Shown one piece after another: positions 29 to 9,220 of a stretch of 64,000 bases of DNA. A model generated the notes under the pieces. It saw only the letters and a program-made list of their open reading frames with translations. It ran no database searches and had not been told where the DNA came from. Positions within the stretch are counted from its first letter, which is position 1. Every line of letters begins with the position of its first letter. The DNA is taken from contig CBDFKD010000002.1 in the NCBI GenBank assembly GCA_965248695.1, forward strand, positions 2,784,001 to 2,848,000, given 5' to 3'. The DNA is from Acidobacteriota bacterium (GTDB taxonomy: Bacteria; Acidobacteriota; UBA890; WLXD01). The translations under genes and the position numbers were made by a program.

Positions 29-367
29 TCACGCCGCCCTCGATGTGATTTCAGCGAAGGCGACCTCATGCAGAGGCTTGCCGCCAGCTGTTAGAAGTGC
101 TGGCAGACTCGTCAAGTACTTCGGCCAGGTCTGCCCCGTTGGCAGGACCGTTTCGTCCGACAGCTTGGCTCCCCCGAGACTGGCTCCCTGGAGGTTGGCA
201 CCCCGGAGGTCGGCTCCCCAGAACTTGGCTTCCCGGAGGTCGGCACACTGGAGGTCGGCTTCCCGAAGGTTGGCTCCCCTGAGATCGGCGAGCCAAAGGC
301 TGGCTTCTGAAAAGTCGGCACACCGAAGGTCGGCGCCCGGTTCGATCTCCCACTCGTTGACTATCAT
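29..367 (-). CDS. Pentapeptide repeat protein
   Basis: [31 protein letters not shown](D/N)Lxx repeats; 15-bp DNA periodicity. Confidence 0.85.
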
Positions 368-549
368 TACGCTGCCCTCGATGCGCTCTCGGCAGCCTCA
401 TTGCACGTACAGGCATGCGCCAGCTCGCCGCAGCACTCACACGTAGCTACCGAGTCGTCGCAGTACCCCGAGGTGCACACCCAGTCCGCTTCGTAGTCGA
501 AAGCAGCGTCCAGGCCGCAGGCCAGGCAAGCGATCTCGCCGACGCTCAC
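367..549 (-). CDS. Small Cys-rich (Zn-finger-like) phage protein
   Basis: CxxC, CxxxxC, CxCC and HxCxC in 60 aa; abuts or overlaps both neighbours. Confidence 0.6.
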
Positions 550-782
550 GCCGCCCCCTGGGGCTCGCTGACCGGCTGAAGGCGCGCAACCATTCGCTGC
601 GTCACCACGTCGCCAATCAGAGTCGCTACGAATGCGAGTTGGTCCTGCTCATCGAGCCGCGCGTAGTATTCGAGCAGCCGGCTCACAGCTTCGCTCGGTG
701 TCTCCGGGAGCTCCCTGAAACATGCCGGGCACAGGGGGCCTTCGTGGTGGCGGGTGTCAACGAACCGGGTCCGGTCGCTCAT
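546..782 (-). CDS. Hypothetical phage protein
   Basis: ATGA/GTGA-type overlaps with neighbours; CPAC motif. Confidence 0.6.
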   Translation of the reverse strand: MSDRTRFVDTRHHEGPLCPACFRELPETPSEAVSRLLEYYARLDEQDQLAFVATLIGDVVTQRMVARLQPVSEPQGAA

Positions 783-964
783 GCCGCCCTCCCGGTGTAC
801 AGATCCACGTAGAAATCCAGATAGTCCTCAGCGCTGAGATCCCGAGCCGTGCAGCGCTGACGCTCCGCGAAAGCACGGCGCGTGGCGGCATAGTCCAGCC
901 CCCGGCGCTCGCAGTACTCCCGGCACCAGCGGGCCAGCGAATCGAGACGGCGTTCGCGGCGCAT
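779..964 (-). CDS. Hypothetical phage protein
   Basis: Coupled to neighbours; ends in GRAA like the other genes in the operon. Confidence 0.55.
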   Translation of the reverse strand: MRRERRLDSLARWCREYCERRGLDYAATRRAFAERQRCTARDLSAEDYLDFYVDLYTGRAA

Positions 965-966
965 CG

Positions 967-1494
967 CTACCGCCCCACTCCGAACACGGCCTGGGAGCGG
1001 AAGGCGCTGACGAGCTCACCATCGTCGTCCCACTGCGCGCAGGCCATGCACACCACCGGGGGGTTGTGATCGGCGATCTCGCGTGGGTGGGTGGATTGGT
1101 CGCAGGAATCGCACACCGGCCACAGGCGCACACAGGTGGGGCAATAGGCCAAGTAGCCGCGCAGGCACCAGCCCTCTTCCTCTTCCTCCAGCCACTCCTC
1201 GACGGCGCCACAGGCCAAGTACTCATCGCGCGGCGCTTCGATCCTCCTGTTGCAGGAATCGCACTCGATCAGCATCAGGACAGCAGCGGGGCTGGGGGCG
1301 ACGGCGCACTCGACATCGTGTCGAGATACGCGGGCCGTGCTACAGTTGGAGTGCACTGGAATGACCTCCTGTGTGGTTGTGGTTTGGGCGTGAGGAGTTG
1401 CCGCTTCTCGCGCCCTTTTTTCGTTCGGGAGTGCCACTGCGCGGGGGCCGATCCTTCGCAGTGGCGTGTGGGTACCTGCTTTCGGTAGCGTCAT
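967..1494 (-). CDS. Cys-rich early phage protein (first gene after cro-1); its N-terminus is encoded by the array repeat
   Basis: GGAGG RBS just upstream (1498-1502); several CxxC motifs; an internal start near 1356 is also possible. Confidence 0.6.
   Translation of the reverse strand: MTLPKAGTHTPLRRIGPRAVALPNEKRAREAATPHAQTTTTQEVIPVHSNCSTARVSRHDVECAVAPSPAAVLMLIECDSCNRRIEAPRDEYLACGAVEEWLEEEEEGWCLRGYLAYCPTCVRLWPVCDSCDQSTHPREIADHNPPVVCMACAQWDDDGELVSAFRSQAVFGVGR
1433..1494. repeat. Cassette-junction repeat copy A (diverged)
   Basis: GCCACTGCG-N15-CGCAGTGGCGTGTGGGT...TCGGTAGCGTCAT. Confidence 0.8.
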
Positions 1495-1502
1495 CGGGCC
1501 TC

Positions 1503-1718
1503 CTAAGCGGCCTCGTCGAGTGCGAACAGATCCTCGACCTGCACTTCCAAGGCAGCAGCGAGGCGCAACGCTTTATCGACCCGGGGCACAAACCGGCCGT
1601 TGACGAGCCGGTTCACGTAGGAGTAGTCGAGCCCGGTGCGCCGAGCCATTTCACGCTGGCTAACACCGTGCCGGTCGAGTACGTCCTGGATCGTGTATCG
1701 CATTGGCGTATTCTCCAC
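1503..1718 (-). CDS. Cro-like XRE HTH protein, cassette 1
   Basis: GVSQREMARRTGLDYSYVNRLVNG...PRVDKALRLAAALEVQVEDLF, an HTH_3 signature; ATG at 1703 is an alternative start. Confidence 0.85.
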   Translation of the reverse strand: MENTPMRYTIQDVLDRHGVSQREMARRTGLDYSYVNRLVNGRFVPRVDKALRLAAALEVQVEDLFALDEAA

Positions 1719-1804
1719 TGCCTTATAAGGCAGTTACATAATAGCTAGTATCGTTGATGATAACAAGACTGTTAGTGCTTTTTCTGGTGTTGACGAATCT
1801 GTCA
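1717..1804. promoter_or_regulatory. Divergent promoter/operator region, cassette 1
   Basis: AT-rich; perfect 18-bp palindrome ACTGCCTTATAAGGCAGT (1717-1734); TAAC-N6-GTTA (1761-1774) and TGAC-N6-GTCA (1791-1804). Confidence 0.6.
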
Positions 1805-1827
1805 GTGCCCGGATAGCCTCGGCCGGC

Positions 1828-2049
1828 ATGGAACTGCGGGATCGCATCAGGGCGCTCGTAGAAGCGCGCGGCACGACGCTCACCCAAGTAGCCGAGTCCA
1901 TGCCGACGCCTGCTGGCCGCACGAGCTTCTGGCGCGTGGTGAGCAAAACGCGACCGACTAGGGACCCTCGCGCATCCACCCTTCAGAAGATCGCCCGCGC
2001 TCTGGGCGTCACCCTCAGCGAACTTCTTGAAGGCGTCGAGTTCGACTAG
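1828..2049 (+). CDS. cI-like XRE HTH repressor, cassette 1 (HTH only, no peptidase domain)
   Basis: LRDRIRALVEARGTTLTQVAE...PRASTLQKIARALGVTLSELLEGVEFD. Confidence 0.85.
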   Translation: MELRDRIRALVEARGTTLTQVAESMPTPAGRTSFWRVVSKTRPTRDPRASTLQKIARALGVTLSELLEGVEFD

Positions 2050-2120
2050 CCGCGTACGTTCTCTCATCGGACACCCCCGCCAGCGCAGGAGCCGCCATCG
2101 GCCGCGAGGAGCTGTGCCAA

Positions 2121-2882
2121 TTGGGGCTTGATGGAAGTCGCGCCAAACTTCGTCGGGCAAGCCAGCACCTCGAGGCGCTCAAGAGAGAAGCTGACTCCTT
2201 CTTTGAAGCGAACCTCTATCGAATCGCCGTTGAGCCTGAGATCGACGAACTCCACTACGTCGCTCGCGTCAAAGATCCTCCTGCTTTGCCCAGTAGTGAG
2301 TGGGCGCTGACTATCGGCGATTGCATCCACAACCTGCGGTGCTCGCTCGACTACATCGCTTGGGCGCTTGCTGGGGCCGATCTCGATGACACACTCACTC
2401 AGTTCCCGATCTTCGACTCCGAGCGGGCATACAAAGCGCGCGGCACTCCGCGCATGATCCACCTTCCCGCTGAGGCCCGATCCTTGATCCAGCGCGTTCA
2501 GCCGTACCAGAGTGACGATCCCGTGATGGCGCCCCTCTCCCTTCTGAGAAGACTGGACAACCGGAACAAGCACAAATTGCTCTCGGTCGTCGCCGCGATG
2601 CCCGAGCGCTTCCGTTTGAACGCTCTCGTCGATGACGAATCCGCTGGCCAGCCCAAAACGTTCATCGCCGTCACCAAGCCCCGCCTGGTACACAACGCAA
2701 AAATCGCGACCCTCGTCTTCTCTGCACCCCCAAAAGTGCAAATGGATACGCTTGTGGTCGCGCGCGTAGTCTTCGGCGAAGGTATGGGGCCTGATACCGG
2801 CTTGGCTGTATTCGAGAGCCTTGACGCGCTCGTGGTCGAGGTCGGATGGGTCATCGACGCTTTCGATGAGAAGTTCTTCTAG
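2121..2882 (+). CDS. Cargo protein, HEPN-like helical domain (putative defence/Abi)
   Basis: GDCIHNLRCSLDY, QFPI and LRRLDNRNKH motifs; sits inside the split junction repeat. Confidence 0.55.
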   Translation: MGLDGSRAKLRRASQHLEALKREADSFFEANLYRIAVEPEIDELHYVARVKDPPALPSSEWALTIGDCIHNLRCSLDYIAWALAGADLDDTLTQFPIFDSERAYKARGTPRMIHLPAEARSLIQRVQPYQSDDPVMAPLSLLRRLDNRNKHKLLSVVAAMPERFRLNALVDDESAGQPKTFIAVTKPRLVHNAKIATLVFSAPPKVQMDTLVVARVVFGEGMGPDTGLAVFESLDALVVEVGWVIDAFDEKFF

Positions 2883-2930
2883 CTCATCGGCTCTCCGGCG
2901 AAGCTCCATGAGAAGCGTGACGATGGCCTC

Positions 2931-3010
2931 GCCCACTGCGCCGCCTGCCTGATTTCGCAGTGGCGTCGAGGTGCTGGGGCTCGGTATCGTCATCGCTCAG
3001 GCGGCCTCGG
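2931..3010. repeat. Cassette-junction repeat copy B (right part; left part at 2038-2058)
   Basis: CACTGCG-CCGCCTGCCTGATTT-CGCAGTG...GGGGCTCGGTATCGTCATCGCTCAGGCGGCCTCG. Confidence 0.9.
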
Positions 3011-3263
3011 TGCTTGGCGCTGGCTCGTCGGCGGTCTGTTCCAACACTCGCTCCCGTGCCTCCGCTGCTGCATTCTCGGCTGCTTCCAGGCGGTCCAGAG
3101 CGGCGGTGACCTTGGCCTTGAAATCGGCGGGCGGTTGGCGTAGCCCGTTCAGGTAACGGGAAAACAGCGTGGGCTCGTAGCCGGCCGTGAGCGCCAGTCG
3201 CTCTTGGCTCACACCCAGCTGGGCGAGACGGCTGCGTACCTGCTGTACATGAATAGTTTTCAT
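2997..3263 (-). CDS. Cro-like XRE HTH protein, cassette 2
   Basis: LGVSQERLALTAGYEPTLFSRYLNGLRQP HTH. Confidence 0.85.
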   Translation of the reverse strand: MKTIHVQQVRSRLAQLGVSQERLALTAGYEPTLFSRYLNGLRQPPADFKAKVTAALDRLEAAENAAAEARERVLEQTADEPAPSTEAA

Positions 3264-3292
3264 GATCCCGAACTTAGATGAGATTTATTCAT
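3249..3292. promoter_or_regulatory. Operator pair, cassette 2
   Basis: ATGA-N7-TCAT at 3249-3263 and 3278-3292. Confidence 0.55.
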
Positions 3293-3326
3293 TAGTCAAC
3301 ACCGTTGTTGCCGCTAAAGTGAAAAA

Positions 3327-3596
3327 GTGCTTGGGGACCGGCTAGCGAAGACGCGAAAGCGGCGAGGACTATCGCAGTTCCAGCTCGCGGTTGAACTGGG
3401 AGATCGCTACGACCAGTCGATGATCTCCCACGTCGAGAACAATCGAACAGGCCTCGTGCGCGACGGGCTGATCCAAGCTGCCCGCGTGCTCGGCGTTTCA
3501 ACGGACTACCTGCTCGGTCTTACCGACGACCCCACGCCCGCTGCCGACCGCGACACCCCGCGCGCCTGCCCCAAGTGCGGCCACGAGTTCGACTAG
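3327..3596 (+). CDS. cI-like XRE HTH repressor, cassette 2 (C-terminal CPKCG knuckle)
   Basis: LGDRLAKTRKRRGLSQFQLA...ISHVENN...ARVLGVSTDYLLGLTDDP; ends HEFD. Confidence 0.9.
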   Translation: MLGDRLAKTRKRRGLSQFQLAVELGDRYDQSMISHVENNRTGLVRDGLIQAARVLGVSTDYLLGLTDDPTPAADRDTPRACPKCGHEFD

Positions 3597-3687
3597 CCGT
3601 ACGCCCCGCACTGCGCCGTCTGCCTGATTCCGCAGTGGCGTGGGGGTGGTGGGGCTCGGTAGCGTCATGGCTCAGGCGGCCTCGTCG
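3584..3687. repeat. Cassette-junction repeat copy C (complete)
   Basis: GAGTTCGACTAGCCGTACGCCCCGCACTGCGCCGTCTGCCTGATTCCGCAGTGGCGTG...GGGGCTCGGTAGCGTCATGGCTCAGGCGGCCTCG. Confidence 0.95.
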
Positions 3688-3872
3688 TTCGCTGGGAACA
3701 ACTCGTCGAGCGTCTTGCCAAGCGCTGTCGCCATCTTGTGAGCAGTAGGGAAACGGCAACCGAGGCCGTTGCAGACACGATTAACCTGCGTCGGATTGAC
3801 GCCCGATTGGTCCGCAAGCCATTTCTGCGTCCGGCCCTGCCGTTCGAGTTCAGCGCGAACTTCATTCTTCAT
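3672..3872 (-). CDS. Cro-like XRE HTH protein, cassette 3
   Basis: GRTQKWLADQSGVNPTQVNRVCNG...AHKMATALGKTLDELF. Confidence 0.85.
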   Translation of the reverse strand: MKNEVRAELERQGRTQKWLADQSGVNPTQVNRVCNGLGCRFPTAHKMATALGKTLDELFPANDEAA

Positions 3873-3902
3873 GAGGTAATCCGTGTATCAGACTATGCTG
3901 TT

Positions 3903-3975
3903 CTGCAGACTTGCTAATATACATATGGTCCACGTTGCTGTCAATGCATATTTGCATACCCGTCGTTTTGCATAC
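3903..3975. promoter_or_regulatory. Operator region, cassette 3
   Basis: ATGCA-TATT-TGCAT (3944-3957) plus further TGCA/TTGCAT half-sites in an AT-rich intergenic stretch. Confidence 0.55.
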
Positions 3976-4013
3976 GTTGACGCGCATTGGTGGCGCGCGT
4001 AGCGTCGCAGCCT

Positions 4014-4229
4014 ATGGTCAGAACCCTCGGAGGCCGCATCCGGCTGATCGCTGACGAGGCGGAGATCAGCCTTAACGAACTCGCCCGCCGGGCGCGGATG
4101 GACCGGGCCTACCTTGGTCGGGTTCTCAACGGACAAACGCCTAGTCCAGGGATAGCGAACGTCGCCAGAATCGCCCGCGCTCTTGGCGTCACCCTCAGCG
4201 AGCTTCTGGAAGGCGTCGAGTTCGACTAG
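4014..4229 (+). CDS. cI-like XRE HTH repressor, cassette 3
   Basis: LGGRIRLIADEAEISLNELARRARMDRAYLGRVLNG...IARALGVTLSELLEGVEFD; ATG 4014 preferred over TTG 3987. Confidence 0.85.
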   Translation: MVRTLGGRIRLIADEAEISLNELARRARMDRAYLGRVLNGQTPSPGIANVARIARALGVTLSELLEGVEFD

Positions 4230-4301
4230 CCGTACGCCCCACACTGCGCCGTCTGCCTGATTCCGCAGTGGCGTGTGGGTGGTGGGGCTCGGTAACGTCA
4301 T
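4218..4301. repeat. Cassette-junction repeat copy D (complete)
   Basis: Near-identical to copy C. Confidence 0.95.
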
Positions 4302-4390
4302 AAGTTGGCTGGCTCAGGCAACTCTCTTACGAGACGAAAAAGAAGACTCGGGGCACTCGAACAACGCACAGAGAACCCAAACCAACTCGA

Positions 4391-5753
4391 GGATCCGGCC
4401 CGAGTCCTGTGGAAATAAAGATGGCGTAACCTCCGAGTAGGAAAAACACAAAGCCGCCACGAGCGGCAGGAGGCTACGCCGTGAAGCAGGTTAGCACGGA
4501 GGGAACCGGGCTCGTCGAGTTCCGGCAGGACGTACAGGCGCTGTTGCGCACCAGGATCCGCGAGGCGATCCAGATGACGCTTGACGAGGAGCTCACCGAG
4601 GCGCTGGGTTGCGACCGATACGAGCGCAACGGGCAGCGGCGAGGCTACCGCAACGGCAGCCAAAGGCGTCGGGTGACGACAGCCCAAGGGCTCCAGGAGC
4701 TGGACATACCGCGGGGGCGCATCGTGGGGCAAGACGGCAGCACCCGAGAGTTCCGCAGCGCGATCCTGCCACGGTACGCACGGCGAGCCCGGCAGGTGGA
4801 CGAGGCGATCCTGGGAGCATACCTGGCGGGAGCCAACACCCGGCGGATCCGCAAGGCGCTCTCTCCGCTGCTGGGCAAGGCGCACCTGACCAAGAGCACG
4901 ATCTCCAGGGTGGTGGGGCGCCTGAAGGCGTACTTCGAGCGCTGGAGACAGCGAGATGTGTCAGGCGAGCGGTACTGGATCCTGTATTTGGACGGGTTCC
5001 ATCTGAAGGTCAGGCTGGCGAGGCGGGTCGTGTCGGCGCCGGTACTGGCGGTGCTCGGGGTCCAGCCCGACGGCCAGAAGGTGTTGGTAGCGTTGCAGTT
5101 GGCGGTCTCGGAGGCAGCGGTGCACTGGCAAGGACTGATCGAGTCGCTGGTGAGACGAGGGCTGCAGGCGCCGGAGGTGCTGATCGCCGACGGCCACAAG
5201 GGCCTGGCCAAGGCGATCGAGGTATGGCCCGATGTGTCGGTGCAGCGGTGCACACAACACAAGTGGAGCAACTTACGCGACCACTGCCCGGTTCATGCAC
5301 GTGCGGAGATGAAGCGGGACTGGGATGCGATCGTCCGGGCCGATGACGGCAACCAGGCCAGAGCCGCCTACGCCGCCTTCGTACGCAAGTGGTCGACCCT
5401 CGTGCCCGCCGTGGCCCGGAGCCTGCAGGAGGCCGGCTTGAACCTGCTGACTTTCTACCAGTTCCCGAAGCCGATGTGGAAGACGCTGCGCACCACCAAC
5501 GCCCTCGAGAACCTGAACCGGGAGTTCCGTCGTCGTACCAAGACGCAGGGCTCGTTCTCGACCGAGGCCGCTGGGGTGACGTTGCTGTGGAGCCTGGTCG
5601 CCTTCGGCCAGATCCGCATGCGACGCATCGATGGCCACCGGTTCTTGGCTCAGCTCACGTGCGGCCCCGACAAACAGGCCGCCTAACCGATAGGATCATC
5701 CGTCGTCGCGGAGGAGACGCTCATCCAATTTCCACGACATTCGGGGCACATCC
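4391..5753 (+). mobile_element. IS256-family element, copy 1 (1363 bp)
   Basis: Imperfect terminal IRs GGATCCGGCCCGAGTCCTGTGGAAAT / ATTTCCACGACATTCGGGGCACATCC; identical inverted copy at 56439-57801; no flanking duplication. Confidence 0.95.
4481..5686 (+). CDS. IS256-family (Mutator) transposase
   Basis: YLDG, IADG, QRCTQH and TTNALENLNREFRRR motifs. Confidence 0.95.
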   Translation: MKQVSTEGTGLVEFRQDVQALLRTRIREAIQMTLDEELTEALGCDRYERNGQRRGYRNGSQRRRVTTAQGLQELDIPRGRIVGQDGSTREFRSAILPRYARRARQVDEAILGAYLAGANTRRIRKALSPLLGKAHLTKSTISRVVGRLKAYFERWRQRDVSGERYWILYLDGFHLKVRLARRVVSAPVLAVLGVQPDGQKVLVALQLAVSEAAVHWQGLIESLVRRGLQAPEVLIADGHKGLAKAIEVWPDVSVQRCTQHKWSNLRDHCPVHARAEMKRDWDAIVRADDGNQARAAYAAFVRKWSTLVPAVARSLQEAGLNLLTFYQFPKPMWKTLRTTNALENLNREFRRRTKTQGSFSTEAAGVTLLWSLVAFGQIRMRRIDGHRFLAQLTCGPDKQAA

Positions 5754-7057
5754 TTGTGCTCCGGTGGCACGGCGCCATCCGCACCCCACCAGGCGCAGAT
5801 CTTGGCATCCTCGAACGCCAACAATGCCGGCTCACGCTCGACCATGGCAATCACGTCTTCCTTGGTCGGACGGTTCGCCCCCATGTCGCCGCAAATGTGC
5901 GCCAGATGCGTGCCCAGCGGCGGCACCGGCAGGCCGCTGACGAATCGGGCATCGGTTCCGGCCAGAATGCGCCCGTAGTTCTCGGTCTCGACCTCGGCCC
6001 AGCTGTCGGCGTCGAAGAAGTCGTCGAGCGCCGAGTAATCACCCTTCTGCACCCTCGACAGCACGTTGGGCAGCTTCATGTAGATCGTCTCGAAGCGGCG
6101 GTAGAGGCGCCCCATGAACGCTACGCCGTCGAACGACATGGTGACCGTCGTGCCGTCCCGGGTCTGCACCGTCTTGGTGTGCGGCCGCTCATCCAGAATG
6201 CGGCGTACCCGATCGATCTCGTAGTACCAGGCGGGGAGCAGCTCGCGACAGTGCGGGTCTTCGGCGACGCAGAGCCCGAGGATGTCGGTGTACACCTGCT
6301 TGATGGTGTAGAACTCGTCGATCGCGGCGCGGTTGCGGATCTCGCCGAACCAGGGGCTGAGCAGGACGATCGAGCGCACGCGGTCGGGGAAGTAGCGCAG
6401 GTACGCGATCACGCTGCCGCCGCCGGTGGAGTAACCGTAGGCGTTGATCTGTTCGTGGCCGAGGAGCTGACGGATCTCGTCGACATCGCGGGCGATGTCG
6501 TACTCGTTGTACTTGGTGACGTCGATGCCCTCCGCCATCAGCTTGTCGTAGCAGCGCTCGACGGTCTCGGCGTGCAGGCGCAGCCGCTCCATGGAGTCGT
6601 TGGTCAGAACGATCGACGGCGCCAGCCGGTTCTGGTAGGGCGACATGGCGATGTCGGGGCACGACAGCGTCGGCTCGGAGTTGAAGAAGCCGCGGTGATC
6701 GATGAGCACCAGCGTGCGGGTCGCAGCGTCGGTGCGTAGCCAATCGACATAGGCGCGCATAGGAGACAGCCCCGGACCGCCGGGAAAATACACGACCGGA
6801 TCGGGGTGCGGACGTGCGGACCCGTGGTCGGGGGCCATGACGGCGACCGGGAGCTCGACGATGGTGCCGTTCGGATCGTCACGATCCTCCTGGCCGAAGA
6901 ACCGGTAACACTCGGCGTTGGCCCCGAGGAGCTCCGGGGTCGTGCACTCGGCTGACTCCAGCCTCGGCACCTGCGCCTGAATCTGCGCTGAGGGAGCGCC
7001 CGCCAGCGCGAGCAGCCAGACGATCGAGGCGGCAGCGAGCCTGCGGCGCGTGAGCAC
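5754..7057 (-). pseudogene. Secreted alpha/beta hydrolase (TAP/S33-like), 3'-truncated by IS256
   Basis: Signal peptide, PGGPG, DHRG, GYSTGG; lacks the C-terminal Asp/His region present in its paralogue. Confidence 0.85.
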
Positions 7058-7074
7058 TCTGACCGCGCTCGGTT

Positions 7075-8613
7075 CTACTCGAATACCCATGGCCCCAGGG
7101 ACACGTCGTCGGTGCAGCTATCGTCGACTTCGGCATCCGGGTCGTCCAGGAAGCTCGAGATCACCTGCGGCCGACACTCCCCCGCCAGCCCATGCCCGAG
7201 CGCCTGAAACTCGAGGATCTGCAGATTGGGCATTGTGCGCGCCAGATAATGGCCCCAGCGCGTGGTGCAGCACGAGTCGACCTGACCGTGCAGCGACAGC
7301 CCGGGAACATCGGAGTAAAAGCGATCGTTGTGCTCTGGTGGCACGGCGCCGTCCACACCCCACCAGGCGCAGATCTTGTTGTCCTCGAACGCTACCAGCG
7401 CCGGCTCGCGCTCGAGCATGGCGAAGACGTCGTCCTTGGTCGGTCGATTCGCGCCCATATCGCCGCAAACGTGGGCAAGGTAGTAACCGTAGGGCTGCCG
7501 CTCGTCGACGTCATCGGGCGACACCTCACGCCAGCCGTCAATGCTGAAGAAGTCGTCGAGCGCCGAGTAGTCGTGCCGCTGTACCCGCGACAGCACGTTC
7601 GGCAGCTTCATGTAGATGTCCTCGAAGCGGCGATAGATCTTGGCGATCAGGGCGACACCGTCGAACGTCAGGGTAACCGTCCTGCCGTCGTCAGTCTGCG
7701 CGGTGGTGACGTAGGGCTGCGCATCGAGCGCCCGGCGAGCACGGTCGATCTCGTAGTACCAGGCCGGAAGCAGCTCGCGACAGTGCGGATCCTCGGCCAC
7801 ACACAGGCCGAGGATATCGGTATACATCTGCTTGATGGTGTAGAACTCGTCGATGGCGGCGCGGTTGCGATACTCGCCGAACCAGGGCGCCCCGAGCACG
7901 AAAGCGCGCACGCTGTGCGGGTAGTAGCGCAGGTACGCCAGCACGCTGCCGCCGCCCGTGGAGTAGCCGTAAATATCGACCTTGTCGTAACCCAGCAGCT
8001 CACGGATCTCGTCGACGTCGCGGGCGATGTCGTACTCGTTGTACTTCGCCACGTCGACGCCCTCACCGACCAGCTTGTCGTAGCACCGTTCCACCGTCTC
8101 GGCGTGCAGGCGCAGCCGTTCCATGGTGTCGGTGGAGGAAACCACCACCGGGGAAAGCTCGTTCTGGTACGGCGAGATGGTGCGGCCTGGGCAGATCAGC
8201 GTCGGCGTGGCGTGAAGGAACCCACGATGCTCGACGAGAACGACCGGACGGTTGCCGGCATCGCCGCGGATCCAATCGAATTCGCCCATCGGCGACAGGC
8301 CGGGGCCGCCCGGGAAGAAGAAGAGCGGCTCAGGGCTCGGACCGACGTTCGGGGCGTCGGCTGCGCTCTCCGGCGCGATCACCGCCACCGGCAACTCGAC
8401 GATCGTGCCGTTGGGGTCGTCGCGATCCTCCTGGCCGAAGAACATGTAGCAATCGGCGTCGGTGTCAACCAACTGCTGCGTGACGCAGTCGGCGGGCTCG
8501 ATTCGCGGGACGGCTCCCGTCTCCTGAGCACCTGCGAGGCCCGGGAGGGTGGCGACCAAAGCGCACGCCAATCCCGTCCGTATCGCTGGCCGTCGTGCGC
8601 GCGCTACCTCCAA
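7075..8613 (-). CDS. Secreted alpha/beta hydrolase (TAP/S33-like)
   Basis: PGGPG, GYSTGG nucleophile, GQVD and LGHG; TTG start at 8613 after a GGAGG RBS. Confidence 0.85.
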   Translation of the reverse strand: MEVARARRPAIRTGLACALVATLPGLAGAQETGAVPRIEPADCVTQQLVDTDADCYMFFGQEDRDDPNGTIVELPVAVIAPESAADAPNVGPSPEPLFFFPGGPGLSPMGEFDWIRGDAGNRPVVLVEHRGFLHATPTLICPGRTISPYQNELSPVVVSSTDTMERLRLHAETVERCYDKLVGEGVDVAKYNEYDIARDVDEIRELLGYDKVDIYGYSTGGGSVLAYLRYYPHSVRAFVLGAPWFGEYRNRAAIDEFYTIKQMYTDILGLCVAEDPHCRELLPAWYYEIDRARRALDAQPYVTTAQTDDGRTVTLTFDGVALIAKIYRRFEDIYMKLPNVLSRVQRHDYSALDDFFSIDGWREVSPDDVDERQPYGYYLAHVCGDMGANRPTKDDVFAMLEREPALVAFEDNKICAWWGVDGAVPPEHNDRFYSDVPGLSLHGQVDSCCTTRWGHYLARTMPNLQILEFQALGHGLAGECRPQVISSFLDDPDAEVDDSCTDDVSLGPWVFE

Positions 8614-8732
8614 CTCCGCACCTCCCTCGCTGTCGGGCTGTGTGTGTCTGGCTGTCGTGTGTCTGGCCGTCTTCGTGTCGACCGTTACAACGTACCGCGA
8701 AAGCACGCTTGACGGTGTCTGGACGGCCATGT

Positions 8733-8748
8733 TACGAAGAGTTTCGTA
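8733..8748. promoter_or_regulatory. Putative BlaI-type operator
   Basis: TACGAA-GAGT-TTCGTA palindrome between the divergent hydrolase and blaI-like genes. Confidence 0.6.
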
Positions 8749-8842
8749 GTTTGCCGTCGAGCACGTCTCACGCAACCGTTCAACGGCACCAGTCGTGACG
8801 CGCGGCACTCGGCTTGCATCCTTCCCCACGCCGGTCAGAAAC

Positions 8843-9220
8843 TTGAGCAACCCCCGTCCAACGGACGCCGAGCTCGCCATCTTGAACGTGCTCTGGGACC
8901 GCGGTCCGAGCACCGTGCGGGGGGTGCTGGAAGGGTTCCCGCTGCCAGCGCCGGGCTACACGACCGCCCTGAAGCTGCTGCAGATCATGCACACCAAAGG
9001 GCTGGTAGCACGTGACGAGTCGGAGCGCGCCCATGTCTACCGTGCCGCCGCCCCGCGTGAGCATACGCAGCGCGGGCTCGTCGGCGACCTCATCGAGCGC
9101 GGGTTCGGAGGCTCCTCCGAGGAGCTCGTGCTACGCGCGCTCGAGGCGCGCCCGGCATCGGAAGACGAGCTGCAGGCCATCCGGCGCTTGATCGACAGGT
9201 TCTCCGAGGACGCATCATGA
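8843..9220 (+). CDS. BlaI/MecI/CopY-family repressor
   Basis: PTDAELAILNVLWDRGPSTVR...YTTALKLLQIMHTKGLV...FGGS. Confidence 0.9.
   Translation: MSNPRPTDAELAILNVLWDRGPSTVRGVLEGFPLPAPGYTTALKLLQIMHTKGLVARDESERAHVYRAAAPREHTQRGLVGDLIERGFGGSSEELVLRALEARPASEDELQAIRRLIDRFSEDAS

Follow-up and report, generated by a model that had tools for sequence, protein, structure and literature searches.

Stacked repressor–cro switch modules joined by a conserved boundary repeat in a small integrative element of an Acidobacteriota genome

How many regulatory switches can a single mobile element carry, and what would several of them do? Temperate phages are classically described as having one repressor/cro switch, which defines their immunity group. 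The locus considered here lies in a 64,000-nt stretch of the genome of an Acidobacteriota bacterium (GCA_965248695.1, contig CBDFKD010000002.1; G000:C2:2784001-2848000, hereafter the window, G000 being the genome that carries it). It forms the end of an integrative element of about 13.7 kb, measured from its integrase gene to an insertion sequence (IS), and contains six small genes for XRE-type helix-turn-helix (HTH) proteins, arranged in three divergent pairs that all share one orientation within positions 1433-4320. An earlier, sequence-only reading had described these pairs as three different cro/cI cassettes in tandem, separated by a conserved repeat, and had proposed that they are a stored library of heteroimmune switches or, alternatively, that all three repressors are expressed and block several heteroimmune phages.

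The same layout recurs in five arrays from two genomes of different genera, with three to five modules in each. This anatomy and its recurrence, together with a mosaic pattern and one recombinant junction, are directly visible in the assemblies. The explanation we favour, to which we give about an even chance, is a stack of working heteroimmune switch modules, assembled and rearranged through homologous recombination at conserved boundaries; the proximal module would control replication and the others would supply extra repressors. In the mechanism proposed, the regulatory end of the element would carry a stack of three, and originally more, different modules instead of one cro/cI-type switch, each bounded by a conserved repeat (here called Rep) on one side and by a shared 3' tail of the cI gene on the other. 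Homologous recombination at these short boundaries would swap, add and delete modules among sister elements, with the outcome that copies would differ in module number, order and promoter-proximal module. Only the Rep-proximal module is joined directly to the early operon, and we infer that the distal repressors would be expressed and heteroimmune, so that the carrier would be immune to sibling elements of other specificities or co-regulated with them.

The anatomy of the window array agrees in most respects with the earlier description. The listing of open reading frames (ORFs), Pfam and PHROG identify the six HTH genes, each at the place first given for it. Five of the six proteins pass the Pfam cut-off for HTH_3, HTH_31 or HTH_26; the sixth, cro2, falls short of it (HTH_31, E 5e-5, 23.9 bits vs 27) but matches PHROG repressor families. 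Identity to the first HTH protein is 24-35% across the set, confirming that the HTH sequences differ from one another. Each module is laid out as Rep, a cro-like gene on the minus strand, an AT-rich control region and a cI-like gene on the plus strand, in some cases with cargo, and the units measure 0.6-1.5 kb (Table 1). Four direct copies of Rep, 70-100 nt long, were recovered with nhmmer (E 1e-14 to 5e-20 against the 5.9-Mb genome). The junction repeats proposed earlier as A, C and D, as well as the copy at 2931, are thus real, whereas the one placed at 2038 is the 3' tail of cI1: positions 1990-2052 are 95% identical to positions 4170-4232 of cI3 and form a second repeat, separate from Rep. 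A further departure from the earlier description is that the first cassette holds an extra gene, ORF253. The intergenic regions of modules 1, 2 and 3 are AT-rich as claimed, with a GC content of 0.46, 0.38 and 0.50 against 0.61 for the whole region, and each has its own symmetric or repeated motif as a putative operator. It also holds that the first cassette alone adjoins the early operon. The minus strand carries cro1, Rep A and orf175, followed by the genes for the annealase, exonuclease, primosomal protein, DnaC-like loader and integrase, so that cro heads the early operon in module 1; in modules 2 and 3, cro is followed by another module.

Table 1. Features of the window (positions counted from its first letter) and composition of the five arrays (modules written from the early operon outwards; aa, amino acids)
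Feature	Position	Strand	Evidence or remarks
Distal part of early operon: pentapeptide-repeat gene 29-367 and small ORFs 367-549, 546-782, 779-964	29-964	-	Pentapeptide, E 3e-21
orf175, first early gene, Cys-rich	967-1494	-	Listed ORF begins at an ATG within Rep A
Strong terminator-like hairpin, just left of Rep A	1386-1422	+ (opposite early operon)	13 pairs + T6
Rep A, cro1/early-operon junction	1429-1498		ACTGCGC-N14-CGCAGTGGCG-N17-GGTANCGTCAT
cro1, module 1 (type A), 71 aa	1503-1718	-	HTH_3, E 6e-11; PHROG repressor families; C-terminus DEAA
Control region, module 1	1719-1827		18-bp perfect palindrome ACTGCCTTA/TAAGGCAGT at 1717-1734
cI1, module 1, 73 aa	1828-2049	+	HTH_3, E 1e-6
ORF253, cargo gene of 253 aa between cI1 and Rep B2	2121-2882	+	Homologues of similar length, 37-41% identity
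Rep B2	2929-2999		Crossed by independent short-read unitigs (2873-3134)
cro2, module 2 (type B), 88 aa	2997-3263	-	HTH_31 below cut-off; PHROG; own profile; C-terminus TEAA
Control region, module 2	3264-3326		TGAATA..TATTCA at 3250-3291
cI2, module 2, 89 aa	3327-3596	+	HTH_31, E 3e-9; CPKCG motif near C-terminus
Rep C	3601-3674		Extended repeat 3579-3668 takes in last codons and stop of cI2
cro3, module 3 (type C), 66 aa	3672-3872	-	HTH_3, E 2e-7; C-terminus DEAA
Control region, module 3	3873-4013		TTTGCATAC twice, at 3951 and 3967
cI3, module 3	3987-4229	+	HTH_31, E 2e-11; start ambiguous: 80 aa from TTG 3987 or 71 aa from ATG 4014
Rep D	4234-4306		Followed by 84 nt (4307-4390) with just a trace of a cro 3' end
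IS256-family insertion sequence	4391-5753	+	Mutator-type transposase 4481-5686 (Transposase_mut, E 1e-82)
Array W	window		A (+ORF253), B, C, then IS
Array P	G000 C1:10.0-12.8 kb		A', orphan H-type cI, B', D
Array Q	G000 C2, 5.22 Mb		A' (cI with 2-nt insertion), E (+ORF253), X
Array S	G007 C2:3.79 Mb		F (+ORF253 paralogue), G, A' (+ORF253), B'', Y
Array T	G007, 0.48 Mb		H, A, B, then a fourth Rep on a ParB-like early gene

Sister elements provide the main evidence that the modules are exchangeable. Elements sharing the early genes are located in G000 at C1:10-25 kb and C2:5.224-5.240 Mb, and four occur in G007, a genome of another genus of the same family; they retain homologues of the early genes at 29-964 in the same order. 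As the sequence-only reading had predicted for relatives, the number and order of cassettes vary, with three to five modules and type A standing first in W, P and Q, second in T and third in S. Type A precedes type B in all four arrays that hold both, and in none of the four is a B-type module proximal. Two further loci, R (G000) and U (G007), each combine a single Rep with a single cro-like gene. The spacers contain variable remnants or cargo, such as orf82-Rep fusions, a 19-aa fragment of orf78 and a ParB-like gene, and are not uniform cassettes. The earlier comparison with a repeat-spacer memory is no more than an analogy. The integrases of three sister elements are only 34-60% identical, though their early genes and Rep are nearly identical. 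ORF253 encodes a protein that is 100% identical between the two genera, and the exchange is therefore recent. Judged from such patterns, the elements are mosaics with recent exchange between genera. In array Q, the cI gene of the proximal module (G000 C2:5226136-5226368) has a 2-nt frameshift relative to an intact copy on C1 that is 98% identical, and this copy could complement the broken gene in trans.

Rep is present in 2 of 26 genomes of the class and absent from the other 24, and distant elements in two further genomes (G005 and G006), as well as a copy on G007 C1, have no Rep and at most one HTH match to our own hidden Markov model (HMM). Scans of larger collections with the exact Rep pattern, which may omit the genome of the window and its near relatives (G007 was not among the results), returned three loci in genome contigs, none in viral contigs and four in metagenome contigs; all seven look like chance matches, with weak or no nhmmer support and no proteins of the element. 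A blastn search of positions 900-4400 against phages and plasmids gave no match. Relatives of cI2 are encoded on 146 of 265 candidate viral contigs, of which 80 were kept (33-61% identical). By a crude count with our own HMM, these 80 loci have zero (9), one (41), two (16), three (12), four (1) or six (1) small HTH ORFs. One unrelated, low-GC viral contig from IMG/VR (L078:1420-4339) contains two tandem divergent HTH pairs whose genes are conserved at their 3' ends (72-79% over 119-126 nt) and differ elsewhere, possibly a second, independent switch duplication; the phenomenon may therefore be wider.

Rep itself is strongly conserved. Its exact core pattern has 11 matches in G000 and 9 in G007, and a reversed-pattern control gave no hits. 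The 20 anchored copies, all of which match the core pattern, align over 81 columns with zero gaps and 27 invariant columns, including CTGCGC, CGCAGTGGCG, GGTA and CGTCAT; a 21st copy has CGTCGT instead of CGTCAT. Read on the cro strand, Rep comprises the last codons and stop of cro, a short spacer, an ATG and 20 codons (MTLP..TPLR..GAV). This ATG frame joins the first early gene in all five proximal copies, whose spacer contains an AGGAGG-type site. In other copies the Rep peptide is fused to an 82-aa ORF, orf82 (three copies), or to orf78 (one), and in eight it is a shadow frame that runs antisense into cI or ORF253, the real gene there. The orf82 genes, found in arrays S and T (L052 14937-15185; L054 10985-11233 and 13171-13419), begin with the Rep peptide and end in GEAA; the three copies agree in 78-81 of 82 residues and have no Pfam match. 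A purely coding explanation of Rep is insufficient, because the third codon positions of TPLR never vary across the copies. Such invariance at the nucleotide level hints at a role of the DNA or RNA beyond that of a boundary.

The left edge of Rep is sharp: the sequence to its left is of six different types, each of which meets Rep within 1-3 nt of CTGCGC. The variants of its loop and N17 segments follow the type of left flank and not the type of cro (for example, cro-A' lies behind three Rep variants), which places the exchange point between Rep and cro at the ATG/cro-stop end. Rep also contains one 8-bp inverted repeat with a 15-nt spacer, which CGCAGTGGCG adjoins. None of its eight pairs shows a compensatory change, five never vary, and 2-4 of the 17 distinct copies break the outer three. 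The idea that Rep forms a structured RNA, nut-like or otherwise, is unsupported: four copies folded on one or both strands gave z values of -0.4 to -1.5, no improvement on shuffled sequences, and covariation was absent. A search of positions 900-4500 against Rfam gave no relevant match, the only hit being a chance match at E 0.75.

Next to Rep A, the terminator-like hairpin falls within the 5' part of the first early gene and is kept in three arrays (12-13 pairs plus a T-run), with counterparts in arrays S and T of G007 at L052 17441-17412 and L054 10220-10249. In lambda, OOP is a small antisense RNA, and by analogy the hairpin could end a similar transcript. The first early gene, orf175, has an alternative start at an internal GTG near 1361 with AGGAGG ahead of it; searches in Pfam, PHROG and PADLOC gave no match, and no relatives were found in viral contigs.

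Comparison of the arrays suggests how the modules were joined. Blocks of homology between arrays start and stop at CTGCGC and CGTCAT, the edges of Rep, and at the cI stop codon. One shared order, Rep-A-ORF253-Rep-B-Rep, makes W 558-2772 (array coordinates; add 899 for those of the window) collinear with S 3527-5741, its positions 3-4, at 87.6% identity over 2242 nt. The Rep A/cro1 junction of the window follows S_1 up to ..CCTAAGCGGCCTCGTC and S_3 beyond it, with the switch inside a shared 34-nt stretch. This joint is exactly what would remain if the first Rep of a five-module, S-like array had crossed over with the third, and a reverse insertion would look identical. Recombination also cuts within genes, since the copies share C-terminal cro-B halves and cI-B tails in differing combinations. 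Array Q still has the conserved DEAA-stop tail, though not in the reading frame of cro-E; there the tail travelled with Rep. Rep and the cI tail are common to modules whose HTH parts are only 24-35% identical, as expected of the conserved linkers of phage mosaic modules. Phage annealases, Sak4 among them, can recombine sequences that share only short, diverged homology and are drivers of mosaicism, according to the available parts of four reports (PMC3945230, PMC5928155, PMC5499656, PMC2327257). The element's own Sak4-like annealase, exonuclease and resolvase probably help in module exchange. The boundary patterns support the view that array number and order would be rebuilt by homologous recombination at the linker, not by programmed site-specific switching.

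Whether the distal modules still work is the second part of the question. Intact reading frames are found for 34 of the 35 HTH genes in the five arrays, the exception being a 2-nt insertion. For diverged copies, the ratio of nonsynonymous to synonymous divergence (dN/dS) is 0.19-0.29 for cI-B, 0.26-0.5 for cro-B and 0.13-0.15 for cI-A, at a synonymous divergence (dS) of 0.36-1.5. Among pairs of B-type copies, dS is 0.36-1.04 in five of six, the W-T pair being closer (0.05-0.18). The control regions of the A/A' and B/B'/B'' subtypes have diverged together with their HTH parts, as would be expected for evolving specificities. A consensus scan found promoter-like sites in the window only towards cro1 (1766-1738, 9/12 matches) and cro3 (3944-3916, near-consensus TTGACA-17-TATATT, 11/12 matches); sigma-70-like candidates directed at cro are also present in modules of ranks 2-4 in G007 and on C1. 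The cI-like proteins of the window, 73-89 residues long, match HTH families only, with neither a C-terminal oligomerisation domain nor an S24 self-cleavage domain, and longer HTH proteins (123-157 aa) are confined to the last module of arrays P, Q and S. The cro-like proteins end in AA in 17 of 19 cases and in EAA in 15 of 19. The distal modules have thus been kept intact, and in our reading they would most likely still produce repressors.

Several points weigh against a stack of working switches built by homologous recombination. Such recombination alone leaves the origin of the first joint between a cI tail and a Rep unexplained, as it does the sharp left edge with its six flanks and the third-position-invariant CGCAGTGGCG, which a protein-binding or recombination site would fit too. 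The array family is seen in just 2 of the 26 genomes of the class. Of the pairs in which both copies are distal, the closest (cI-B, W vs T) has a dN/dS of about 1, with very few changes, and purifying selection may date from a time when each module was active in another element. Furthermore, some spacers carry remnants of the early operon (orf82, the orf78 fragment, the ParB-like gene), which fits the decay of tandem elements as well. According to that account, which we consider unlikely, the arrays are leftovers of tandemly integrated or recombined elements whose interiors were deleted, and the distal modules are functionless and simply young. The three orf82-Rep copies, the 19-aa orf78 piece and the ParB-like gene behind the last Rep of T are such leftovers; the orphan cI of array P, the frameshifted cI of array Q and the IS that cuts the window array itself point the same way, and blocks of up to 100% protein identity between the two genomes would make the events recent. 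However, nearly all HTH genes (34/35) remain open despite a dS of up to about 1 between homologous modules. The B-type modules are distal in 4/4 arrays and have dS values of 0.36-1.04 in 5/6 pairs, yet their dN/dS is 0.19-0.5; in addition, promoter-like sites are kept and no indel occurs in 20 copies of Rep.

A different role for the same stack, with a similarly small chance of being right, is that of an OR-gate of serial promoters. Each cro-side promoter would read leftwards through Reps and modules into the single early operon, so that loss of any repressor would fire the element; the cI genes may then form one long transcript, and the element may take its cue from several sibling or helper elements instead of just excluding them. 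The strands are suitably divided, cro genes and early operon on one and cI genes and cargo on the other. Promoter-like sites point towards cro in proximal and distal modules of four arrays, Rep is retained behind every cro even where no early gene comes next, and from module 3 to the early operon the cro strand has a single terminator-like site, a weak one (2454-2437). That terminator count stems from a simple consensus scan, however, and terminators of GC-rich bacteria can be without T-runs; read-through would also go antisense over each cI gene, and no antitermination-like RNA structure is supported. The view that all repressors are expressed is compatible with the 34/35 intact genes and with dN/dS values of 0.13-0.5. 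It enters into a broader proposal, which we rate as a minor possibility: the array would be a heritable record of whole switches, the element capturing sibling modules at Rep through its own annealase, exonuclease and resolvase, with all repressors expressed and the cro promoters in series. If true, this multi-input switch would exclude several heteroimmune rivals and fire when any one of their repressors is inactivated. Programmed immunity switching, in which a dedicated recombinase acting on Rep would delete or excise cassettes at appreciable frequency and change the driver of the early operon, is improbable. The direct repeats, the sharp left edge where six flanks meet at the same point, the invariant CGCAGTGGCG beside the 8-bp inverted repeat and the varying proximal module all suit it. 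Against it, the sole recombinase gene found is a tyrosine integrase 10 kb off that is 34-60% identical among elements sharing the same Rep, and Rep has none of the usual attC features. The inner Rep variants follow the left flank, Rep gave neither a covariation nor a fold signal, and the one readable junction lies in plain homology. The earlier notion of a stored switch library is upheld as to distinct units, direct repeats, a geometry by which Rep x Rep deletion could bring another unit up to the early operon, variable number and order, and a recombinant junction of the S_1/S_3 type, but no sign of a dedicated or site-specific mechanism was seen. Unitig joints such as 1517>4198 and 3670>4199, with 30-nt sides and an unknown middle, are uninformative on deletion junctions; the unitigs come from four runs of one sample and break inside repeats. 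These runs look like a mixed community with variant copies (loose ends, variant letters), as would be expected if alternative alleles of one switch from co-existing strains had been strung together in assembly. This misassembly, named in advance as a possible refutation, is highly improbable, given five arrays in two separately assembled genomes, the A-ORF253-Rep-B adjacency shared by W and S, unique flanks of every module, and unitigs over 2873-3134 (ORF253-Rep B2-cro2) and 4256-4420 (Rep D into the IS).

The remainder of the element holds replication and recombination genes. Leftwards on the minus strand come small ORFs with two pentapeptide-repeat genes, a PD-(D/E)XK exonuclease, the Sak4-like annealase, a Holliday-junction resolvase, a DUF1376 primosomal protein, a DnaC-like loader and the tyrosine integrase, beyond which ordinary chromosomal genes follow; the array occupies the opposite end. 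Pfam models for the HK97-type capsid and TerL (PF05065, PF03354) had no match in the whole genome, and the portal model PF04860 had a single sub-threshold match 2.77 Mb away. The element therefore looks integrative, replicating and recombination-proficient, with no virion genes found by a search that comprised these three Pfam families, the right end of the element having been lost to the IS. Its integrase, repressor and replication genes are compatible with a phage satellite resembling a phage-inducible chromosomal island (PICI), though no helper or packaging function was identified. Comparison of the integrase side with the array side in the three elements of G000 revealed no direct repeats that could mark att sites, and no tRNA gene adjoins the window element.

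The IS at the right of the array belongs to a family with nine further full-length copies and one partial copy elsewhere in the genome. Its flanks differ, with no 8-bp target-site duplication, and the hydrolase gene on its right is truncated at 5754, which points to an IS-mediated deletion or rearrangement that removed the right part of the array. Since the array is cut here, three cassettes are a minimum. Positions 5754-8913 hold two tandem paralogous hydrolase-like genes on the minus strand, the first of them cut by the IS; a stretch 96% identical to the truncated gene occurs at C2:931645-931994. About 25 kb to the left of the window (G000 C2:2759378-2759644), an isolated fragment 86% identical to cI1 (269 nt, 53-aa ORF) lies amid IS-type transposase genes, close to fragments of pentapeptide and orf78 genes, and looks like a remnant of a further copy of the element. 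The AlphaFold2 model of ORF253 is confident (pLDDT 81), and a fold search against the PDB gave nothing at E<=0.001, while all its Atlas clusters are unnamed. Together with six other cargo ORFs, ORF253 has no Pfam family above the cut-off and no convincing PADLOC match; the only PADLOC result for cargo was a weak Cas1 match (E 0.0065) in another array than that of the window.

The significance of these arrays depends in part on the distal repressors. A family of small integrative elements carries three to five different switches in a row in place of the textbook one, sister copies combine these modules in different numbers and orders, and the boundary that joins them is legible down to the single base. 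Should the distal repressors be functional, the element and its host would gain compact immunity to several rivals, or a means of listening to several, and the arrays would be a natural case of switch modules stacked and rewired by recombination. If they fail, an unusually clear natural record of immunity-module exchange at conserved linkers would still be left.

We know of no described equivalent of stacked cro/cI modules, and no description of tandem cro/cI arrays was found in the literature searched, a search to which most subscription journals and supplements were external. Several known systems share some of the features. Integrons, for example, also present a one-orientation row of units separated by a conserved repeat with an inverted repeat, variable in number and order among relatives. 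Their attC sites are imperfect palindromes of 57-141 bp with conserved core sites, whereas each Rep has a single 8-bp inverted repeat and no GTTRRRY-type core in the alignment, and so is not attC-like. Integrons carry an IntI-type integrase with attI and Pc beside the first cassette, whereas here no IntI adjoins the array; the only integrase found, with a generic Phage_integrase match, is encoded about 10 kb off, where the element has its opposite end. Most integron cassettes consist of one ORF without a promoter, in contrast to units of two genes with their own control region. The dimensions also differ from those of CRISPR-like arrays, which have repeats of 21-48 nt, short spacers of even length and cas genes close by, compared with 70-100 nt for Rep and units of 0.6-1.5 kb. 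A cro/cI-like pair that outlasts the rest of its element is known from E. coli, where dicA/dicC is the retained immunity region of the cryptic prophage Qin; that pair is single and unrepeated, without a shared boundary repeat, unlike the stack described here.

Closer parallels are provided by phage immunity regions. The lambda-type switch shares the divergent HTH pairs and the cro-side gene that heads an early operon, the latter in module 1 only, and differs in that the window repressors lack the C-terminal domain, a defining feature of lambda. The lambdoid imm regions, familiar from the imm434 and imm21 hybrids and from the modular theory of phage evolution, are likewise replaceable repressor/cro/operator modules flanked by sequence common to heteroimmune relatives. 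Lambdoid phages have one module per genome, which is replaced on exchange, whereas here three to five are stacked, each with a copy of the boundary, in elements with no virion genes found. As far as the available parts of two reports go, lambdoid modules too are exchanged by homologous recombination, with phage recombinases that tolerate short diverged homology (PMC2327257, PMC3945230). In Mycobacterium abscessus, the accessible text of one report describes tandem prophages with unrelated repressors, discusses homologous and integrase-mediated routes to them, and notes C-terminal 'AA' degradation tags on regulators (PMC9934374). Two different repressors side by side and the AA ends are thus common to both cases. 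From the same text, the M. abscessus arrangement consists of two complete prophages joined at att sites inside a repressor gene, whereas the units here are incomplete and no att site was seen. Tandem arrays with different repressor alleles are also formed by CTX-phi/RS1. There, the repeated unit is a whole element with replication genes and is made by site-specific integration. In the available parts of two reports, such arrays of Vibrio cholerae carry different rstR alleles (PMC4169478, PMC8265649). Both systems place several repressor genes, heteroimmune there and putatively so here, in one tandem array that varies between strains by recombination; in the arrays described here, the unit is the switch only, and its boundary is the junction between cro and the first early gene.

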